Shown piece after piece: positions 1,220-2,442 of a DNA stretch of 64,000 nucleotides (positions within the stretch are counted from its first letter, which is position 1; each line of letters starts with the position of its first letter). The translations under genes were made by a program, and so were the position numbers. The stretch lies in assembly GCF_016026235.1 (NCBI RefSeq), contig NZ_CP065613.1, one strand, 5' to 3'. The DNA is from Escherichia coli (GTDB taxonomy: Bacteria > Pseudomonadota > Gammaproteobacteria > Enterobacterales > Enterobacteriaceae). The notes beneath the pieces are model-generated. The model was given only the letters and a program-made list of their open reading frames with translations, did no database searches and was not told the origin of the DNA.

Positions 1220-2442
1220 AGGGTGTCTCCTGCAAACCGGAGGGAGGAAAGAAAAGAGCGACCATTTTGTGGCGGTGGCGCACGGAAAAATTCACACACG
1301 GTAGCCCCCACATCAGAAAGCGTGGTGCGAACACCTAGCTGAGTAGCAGCCAAGCCTTGCTGATAAACCAGCACCGGCACGACTTCGCGGGTATGGTGGC
1401 TGTGACCGATTGTCGGGTCGTTACCATGATCAGCCATGACGATCAGGCAGTCATCTGGCTGCATCGCCTCAACCAGGAGAGCAAGATTACGGTCAACGAC
1501 CTGCAAACGTTCGGCATAACGTGCGACGTCTTCTGCGTGACCAGCGAGGTCGGTTTCCTGAATGTTGGTGCAAATAAACGCAGTCTGATGGGTGATAAAT
1601 TCGTCGAGGGTGATATCCATAATCCGCTGGCTATCCACCAGATTTTGCCAGCTCACGCCATAAGGATTGTTGACGATATCTGCCACCTTACCCACCAGCA
1701 CGGTTGGCACGCCTGCTTCATACAGTTTTTGTGGCACCTGCACTTTTTCATCGACGCCATAGCCCATATGCACGACCTGGAAACCGTTGTCATAAGCGCC
1801 AGAACGCGGCGCATTAATACCAATAAAGCGCCCTTCTTTGCTTTCTGCGGCATCGAGAATACGCTGACTGTCGGTTAACAGGCCGCCAAATGTAATGACC
1901 CGACCGACCTGTACCTGGTCACGCACGATACGACCAATTTTGATTGCGTCGTCAAAAGAGATCACAGAGAGATTGGCGGTAATGTTATAGACTTGGCCTA
2001 AATCCGCCTCGAGATTATCGCCAATCGCAACCGCCTGATTGACCTACAGAAATTGCAGTTCATCGCCACGGCGCTCCACCTGCCAACCGGCGGATACTAA
2101 TGCCTGCTCAACACGGTCAATCACATCGCGAAAGGGCATCCGCAGCGGCGGTAACGGGCGCGTGCCTAAAATTTCCTGATGCCCCATAAAGGTATCGCCA
2201 CCTTCATGTTGCAGCTCTGCCACGCCCCAGGTTGCGGAGTCTGACGGCTGCATATCGCCTGGCGCATAACCCAATGCGTTGATTAGCCCCAGCTTCTCCA
2301 GCGTTGGTAGCTGCAAATGCGGCAACTGGCTCAGGATGTGACCACAGGTATTCGCCCCGGCATCCTGCGGACGCACCAGCGTGACATCTTTCATTGCGCC
2401 TACGCCAAAGCTATCAATCACTAACACCACAAATCTCGCCAT
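1216..2442 (-). pseudogene. yhfW: yhfW (phosphopentomutase/metalloenzyme-like) interrupted by one in-frame TAG
   Basis: Two same-frame ORFs (2044..2442, 132 aa and 1216..1965, 249 aa) are separated only by TAG at 2044-2046. Reading through gives ...[41 protein letters not shown]..., 408 codons in all, which is the length I recall for intact YhfW. Confidence 0.8.

Follow-up and report, generated by a model that had tools for sequence, protein, structure and literature searches.

The interrupted yhfW reading frame

In the stretch of Escherichia coli DNA analysed here (64,000 nucleotides, hereafter the window), two open reading frames (ORFs) lie on the minus strand in one and the same frame, one at 2044..2442 (132 aa, ATG start, stop included) and the other at 1216..1965 (249 aa, GTG start), where K-12 has the single gene yhfW. 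The question raised by this locus is whether it holds two genes, one gene that is recoded or read through, an error in the assembled sequence, or a single gene that has been lost and, in the last case, how and why the loss came about.

The region from 1216 to 2442 on the minus strand aligns with K-12 yhfW without a gap (1227 nt, 95.9% identity) and comprises 408 sense-length codons and a TGA terminator. Its minus-strand translation contains a single internal stop, the amber TAG of codon 133 (2044..2046, where the plus strand reads CTA), which stands between the residues DELQFL and VNQAV. Ahead of this stop are codons 1–132 (2047..2442, minus strand), the only part of yhfW that is expected to be translated, and behind it 26 open codons (134–159, 1966..2043, minus strand) lead to the first in-frame GTG, with which the 249-codon ORF (codons 160–408, 1216..1965, minus strand), a remnant of the 3′ part of yhfW, begins. 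The sum of 132, 1 (the TAG), 26, and 249 codons is 408, the length of K-12 YhfW. Both the ORF list and the translation thus agree with the sequence-only reading of this locus, in which fragments of 132 and 249 aa had been placed in one frame of 408 codons on readthrough.

Several features of the encoded protein span the break. The readthrough product contains one Pfam domain, PF01676 (Metalloenzyme), which extends over residues 3–388 with a score of 187 bits. For the 132-aa fragment by itself, the PF01676 score is 24.0 bits, under the cutoff of 24.3, and the 249-codon part covers profile positions 72–250. The best match among solved structures is the Bacillus cereus phosphopentomutase 3M8W (E = 1.9e-30, 109 bits). 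In the alignment with 3M8W, the N-terminal VIDSFGVG segment and the GGDTFMGH segment, with the Asp83-Thr84 (DT) nucleophile motif, fall before the stop, in the part that also retains Asp10, and the metal-binding motifs DLAGH, ADHGNDP, and HTRE fall after it, the last two of which align to the metal sites of phosphopentomutase. Each half contains part of the active site and neither a complete one.

Ancestrally, yhfW encoded a putative phosphomutase of the phosphopentomutase/alkaline-phosphatase 'Metalloenzyme' superfamily, and RefSeq names YhfW 'phosphopentomutase'. It shares with the DeoB phosphopentomutase (3M8W) both core segments, over which the two proteins align, as well as the conserved metal-binding DS..G start, DT, ADHGNDP, and HTRE. 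However, YhfW is a distant paralogue of DeoB that is encoded in the yhfZYXW-php-yhfUTS cluster and not in the deo operon and, in the window, its gene is truncated after the first third. In full-text literature searches, no function was found for this cluster in E. coli, and YhfW appeared there only as a 'putative mutase'. An overexpression screen published in 2026 reported that YhfW raises the MICs of ampicillin and trimethoprim threefold (PMC12924614), in a gap-filling study YhfW was matched to a reaction, though with a non-significant E value of 0.47 (PMC3423039), and a paper on ST131 mentions yhfW solely for a synonymous SNP. With 36 synonymous and 10 missense codon differences between the yhfW sequences of the window and K-12, purifying selection acts on the gene across the species, in which it is functional.

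It might be asked whether yhfW is naturally two genes at the break, or whether the stop is recoded, as gene callers do annotate the 132- and 249-aa ORFs in public assemblies. Essentially all orthologues, however, have TGG at this codon within one ORF of 408 codons, a single Pfam domain spans the junction, and the Prokaryotic Genome Annotation Pipeline (PGAP) labels an equivalent TGA allele a pseudogene. In addition, the second ORF is devoid of a start signal: no Shine-Dalgarno-like motif is found upstream of GTG160, the first in-frame start after the TAG (upstream sequence ACATTACCGCCAATCTCTCT). Since the orthologues have one ORF, one domain spans the break, and GTG160 is not preceded by a Shine-Dalgarno sequence, we conclude that yhfW is not naturally split and that the 249-codon ORF at 1216..1965 is purely mechanical and not a separate gene. 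The sequence-only reading had itself singled out a natural division of the orthologues at this point as what would speak against it, and what the orthologues have instead is a single ORF, a TGG codon, and one spanning domain. The comparison refutes the two-gene interpretation, whose probability we regard as negligible. A conserved stop codon, as in programmed recoding, was likewise not seen, the orthologues having TGG and stops occurring in scattered lineages at different codons.

Origin and distribution of the amber allele

A codon-by-codon comparison showed that codon 133 is TGG (Trp) in K-12, NZ_OZ282453, and FDAARGOS_943. NZ_OZ282453 has the nearest intact allele and differs from the window in nine codons of yhfW, namely the stop itself and eight synonymous ones. 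FDAARGOS_943 (NZ_CP065615.1), which is the closest genome overall, has C at the equivalent of window position 2045 and thus TGG; when K-12 serves as the outgroup, the window lineage is the one on which T arose at 2045. The lesion is accordingly a single G>A transition of the coding strand, which turned TGG (Trp133) into TAG and reads as C>T on the plus strand at 2045. An alignment of orthologues had been proposed earlier as the way to identify the ancestral codon, and the TGG found in all three genomes sustains the accompanying claim that one nonsense substitution inactivates a yhfW of 408 codons. Downstream of the TAG, the frame is wholly open and contains just one further change, which is synonymous; because of this, the nonsense allele is most likely of recent origin.

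The same allele is present in a genome sequenced independently. A contig (L004; GCA_000805835.1, JTCO01000039.1) matches the window with 100% identity across 5,442 bp, TAG included, and belongs to the draft genome of the enteroinvasive E. coli (EIEC) O143:H26 strain 4608-58 (PMC4319576), an independent Illumina MiSeq assembly of 2015. By exact-sequence look-up, the 132-aa product was found in 294 blocks of public assemblies, which fall into two groups, the TAG and the TGA haplotypes. One clone behind all 294 blocks was considered and rejected, as most of the places examined (L005-L008) have TGA on a different haplotype. The 249-aa product is specific to the window haplotype and occurs in about 18 contigs, a number that might include repeated sequencing of one stock; it adjoins the 132-aa product with the same neighbours throughout, and one of these contigs is longer than 1 Mb. 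Among complete RefSeq E. coli genomes, the exact 81-bp TAG allele was found in 0 of 5,426. Matches to this 81-mer were obtained in 5,046 genomes, 4,902 of them at 95–99% identity and with exactly one mismatch in the top matches listed, and the yhfW region is present in 5,074 of the 5,426 genomes. The TAG allele is therefore rare and restricted to a small EIEC clone, the lineage of O143:H26 strain 4608-58, for which it can be used as a marker.

A natural pseudogene, a strain-specific lesion, and a sequencing error had all been entertained when the locus was first read, and the data favour the first two over the third. That the TAG is an error of sequencing or assembly, or a mutation of a laboratory stock whose wild source has TGG, would agree with the single-base difference from the closest complete genome and with the lack of the TAG in any complete RefSeq E. 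coli genome. It is harder to reconcile with the occurrence of this base both in the MiSeq draft of 4608-58 from 2015 and in about 18 contigs that vary in length and source, and the change is a substitution, not a homopolymer indel. A change acquired in storage could still produce this pattern if all the assemblies derive from one archived stock. Because the allele recurs in the 4608-58 draft and in the about 18 contigs, we consider a sequencing error very unlikely, and the same holds for the error or stock-mutation explanation as a whole.

Operon neighbours and the expression of php

The genes next to the lesion are intact wherever they are fully visible. Upstream, yhfX (2443..3606, minus strand) encodes a fold-type III PLP enzyme of 387 aa, which has acquired a window-derived G80C substitution (position 3369), and its TAA stop (2443-2445) abuts the ATG of yhfW (2440-2442). 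The first gene downstream of the lesion is php (341..1219, minus strand), which encodes an intact phosphotriesterase-related protein of 292 aa, and beyond it lies yhfU (1..330, minus strand; DUF2620), which is cut by the window edge and is open in its visible part. The stop of yhfW (TGA, 1218-1216) and the start of php (ATG, 1219-1217) overlap as ATGA (1216..1219, minus strand).

It had been claimed from the sequence that yhfW is translationally coupled to php, so that polarity on php and yhfU is possible. The ATGA overlap is in favour of this claim. However, php has a Shine-Dalgarno sequence of its own, AGGAG (1227..1231, minus strand), which lies 7 nt upstream of the ATG and inside the 3′ end of yhfW, and the 111 nt in which it lies are predicted to fold no more stably than their shuffled versions (z = +1.29). 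Obligatory coupling as the route to php is thereby weakened, since php possesses its own AGGAG and no sequestering structure; for the same reasons, de novo initiation on php should be possible, given mRNA.

Any effect on php and yhfU would then be exerted mainly through Rho-dependent polarity, given that the Shine-Dalgarno sequence of php lies in an unstructured region. Beyond the TAG, 828 nt of yhfW mRNA are left untranslated, and this segment may permit Rho-dependent polarity on php-yhfU(TS). It includes a C-rich, G-poor maximum (1527..1630, minus strand; C 28–31%, G 17–19%) that is a candidate Rho-loading region, and neither an internal promoter nor a terminator was detected between the TAG and php beyond shuffle expectation. 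The arrangement resembles that of classical polar amber mutations in having 828 nt between a premature stop and the next cistron downstream, an operon whose genes abut or overlap, and a C-rich, G-poor segment in the untranslated stretch; it differs from them in the strong, unstructured Shine-Dalgarno sequence of php and in that polarity is here deduced from anatomy. Taken together, Rho-dependent polarity on php-yhfU(TS) is plausible.

Parallel lesions and gene decay

The window and FDAARGOS_943 are 99.95% identical, with 32 SNPs over about 62 kb, 30 of which are transitions. The window-derived SNPs are mostly G:C>A:T (18 of 22), and the window-derived coding changes include 13 nonsynonymous or nonsense versus 8 synonymous ones. 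Such a strongly AT-biased spectrum of recent changes under weak purifying selection is familiar from young, host-restricted clones. Each genome has its own lesions. Those of the window are the yhfW stop (Trp133 to TAG), a stop in glpR (Glu133), and an IS4 insertion. In FDAARGOS_943, a 915-bp insertion sequence (IS) with a 3-bp target duplication interrupts yhfW at the site corresponding to window 2097..2099, and an IS1-mediated deletion that runs from cysG into yhfU, which is left truncated, has taken out yhfT, yhfS, and the frl genes; further lesions are a TAG at Gln44 of glpG and an IS2 that interrupts a pstS-like gene, whose copy in the window (58270-59787) is intact. FDAARGOS_943 has destroyed the same operon independently of the window.

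Several of these loci deserve a separate description. The glpR gene (52443-53201, minus strand) encodes the DeoR-family glycerol-3-phosphate repressor and has an amber at codon 133 (stop 52804-52806), resulting from GAG>TAG (plus strand C>A at 52805), with GAG in both FDAARGOS_943 and K-12. That the glpR and yhfW ambers both fall at codon 133 is a coincidence. The identical glpR allele occurs in the Logan assembly ERR3372598 (L022) within 3.4 kb of 100% identity, and codon 133 of glpR is TAA in other lineages (L021, L023, L024); constitutive glp expression is the expected consequence of the amber. The IS4 (1.4 kb, approximately 59883-61308) contains an ORF at 59896-61242 (448 aa, Pfam Nterm_IS4 and DDE_Tnp_1) and is located between the pstS-like gene and glgP, where FDAARGOS_943 has none; its flanks overlap by 12 bp, which is consistent with target duplication. 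Between glpD and glgP, four minus-strand ORFs (201, 255, 236, and 505 aa) occupy 56166-59787, the last with a PBP_like_2/PstS-like domain; they have no K-12 counterpart at this place and form a small accessory island common to the window and FDAARGOS_943. The glpG gene (53218-54048) is 100% identical to that of K-12 over 831 nt, with flanking genes at 97–98%, which suggests a small recombination patch. In gntX (37543-38226), the frame annotated in K-12 has a stop at codon 9 in the window, a position at which FDAARGOS_943 does not differ from it, and the annotation of FDAARGOS_943 starts the gene downstream (215 aa), so that start-site variation or mis-annotation, and not a pseudogene, is probably involved.

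The second amber has some bearing on whether the yhfW amber might be read through, by a suppressor tRNA or owing to its context, so that useful full-length YhfW is made. Both window-derived nonsense codons are TAG, and the yhfW frame beyond the stop is completely open with its one synonymous change. Nevertheless, a recent lesion would leave the downstream frame open in any case, and two ambers of two are not significant, as TGG>TAG and GAG>TAG are among the few single-step routes to a stop; moreover, relatives have destroyed yhfW by an IS or by TAA or TGA stops. Amber suppressors are rare in natural isolates. A search with ARAGORN found no tRNA genes in the 64-kb window; any suppressor tRNA would have to be encoded elsewhere in the genome. 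Readthrough of this kind appears highly improbable.

Inactivation of yhfW has also occurred in more distant lineages. A TGA at codon 133 was found in a lineage (L005-L008) that is about 96% identical to the window across the 5-kb region and differs from it at 37 of the 1227 yhfW sites. Because it is a different stop on a distinct haplotype, this allele is independent of the TAG and goes back to a separate TGG>TGA event. Three complete RefSeq E. coli genomes that are not labelled EIEC (14EC033, 100416, and CUWW06) have the TGA allele, and in 14EC033 (NZ_CP024147.1) PGAP annotates yhfW as a pseudogene with an 'internal stop'. These genomes resemble the window in the change of Trp133 to a stop, the identical 132-aa N-terminal product, and an otherwise intact operon, and differ from it in having TGA rather than TAG and a separate haplotype.

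The protein clusters that contain these fragments also include truncated YhfW from Shigella sonnei (129 aa, >1,000 contigs) and Shigella boydii ATCC 9905 (271 aa). In S. sonnei, codon 130 has changed from CAA (Gln) to TAA in 5,277 blocks, and yhfX is split as well; in the S. boydii-type genomes CP026836, CP026824, and CP026845, codon 272 has changed from CAG (Gln) to TAG. A further form of YhfW, of 119 aa, ends immediately before Trp120. All the nonsense changes in yhfW that were verified on DNA are G:C>A:T transitions. As the lesioned lineages were found by searching with truncated YhfW, they demonstrate recurrence and not an excess over neighbouring genes. In yhfW, a transition can create a stop at 31 codons, at Trp codons in two ways, and in a simulation of five transition-type nonsense events the probability of at least one codon coincidence was about 0.31. 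A mutational hotspot or selection at codon 133 was therefore rejected, two stops at this codon being expected by chance. An apparent clustering of truncations at codons 120–133 was likewise dismissed as an artefact of clusters built at 90% identity, which group fragments of similar length.

In lineages in which yhfW is already broken, yhfX shows four different secondary disruptions, in L006, L008, L015/L016, and L018, with split products of 278+79, 272+111, 246+138, and 189+178 aa, respectively, although some of these come from Logan draft assemblies and could be errors. In the yhfX-disrupted lineages, yhfZ and yhfY are undamaged, and the length of the php product deviates by no more than 5 residues. 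The yhfX disruptions could reflect ongoing decay of the operon or a bias towards yhfX.

These repeated losses raise the possibility that loss of yhfW, or of the yhfX-yhfW step, was positively selected in invasive lineages as a pathoadaptive 'antivirulence' event, like that of cadA or nadA/B in Shigella. At least five independent yhfW inactivations in EIEC, Shigella, and one other lineage would fit this explanation, as would four different secondary yhfX lesions in yhfW-broken lineages with php, yhfY, and yhfZ intact. On the other hand, the number of lineages is biased by their ascertainment via truncated YhfW, chance is enough to explain the coincidence at codon 133, some of the secondary lesions stem from Logan drafts with possible errors, and the TGA allele is present in three complete genomes not labelled EIEC; in addition, about 6.5% of complete E. 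coli genomes do not have the region, suggesting that it is generally dispensable. We therefore consider positive selection unlikely. A little more doubtful still is the more specific proposal that the recurrent inactivation of yhfW and then yhfX in invasive E. coli and Shigella lineages reflects selection, acting within the host, against this step of the yhfZYXW-php-yhfUTS pathway; if it were true, the cluster could be counted as a new locus of antivirulence or pathoadaptation, which would provide a handle on its substrate.

The reading that we prefer, with a probability of roughly 0.85, is that yhfW is a recent unitary pseudogene, created by one G:C>A:T transition and fixed in a small EIEC clone as an instance of gene decay, the assignment to an invasive lineage resting on the 5.4-kb identity to EIEC O143:H26 strain 4608-58. 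Ribosomes would terminate at codon 133 and release a fragment of 132 residues, in which the N-terminal metal ligand would be present together with the Thr nucleophile motif and the C-terminal Asp/His metal ligands would be missing, and no phosphomutase would be made, with a presumable loss of enzyme activity. Since the sister genome and several Shigella lineages have each lost yhfW or its operon through lesions of their own, the simplest cause would be that the pathway is no longer needed. Relaxed selection on a pathway dispensable in EIEC is thus what the pattern of loss points to.

Nonsense pseudogenes of Shigella and EIEC offer the closest parallel: a single G:C>A:T stop in a catabolic operon that is specific to a lineage, accompanied by IS insertions and other nonsense mutations within the same 64 kb, in a gene that has been hit independently in S. 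sonnei, in S. boydii-type strains, and in an EIEC-like sister genome. It differs in that yhfW is not among the documented pathoadaptive losses and that the codon-133 TGA is also found in genomes not labelled EIEC. EIEC have been described as an intermediate form with less gene decay than Shigella (PMC4319576). The finding in yhfW is ordinary gene decay. For annotation, the ORFs at 1216-1965 and 2044-2442 should be treated as one pseudogene (yhfW, internal stop) and not as two genes. For the parallel loss of yhfW to carry real interest, an unbiased survey would have to indicate that it was selected; as it stands, yhfW provides one more example of how Shigella and EIEC have lost an uncharacterised catabolic cluster in parallel.
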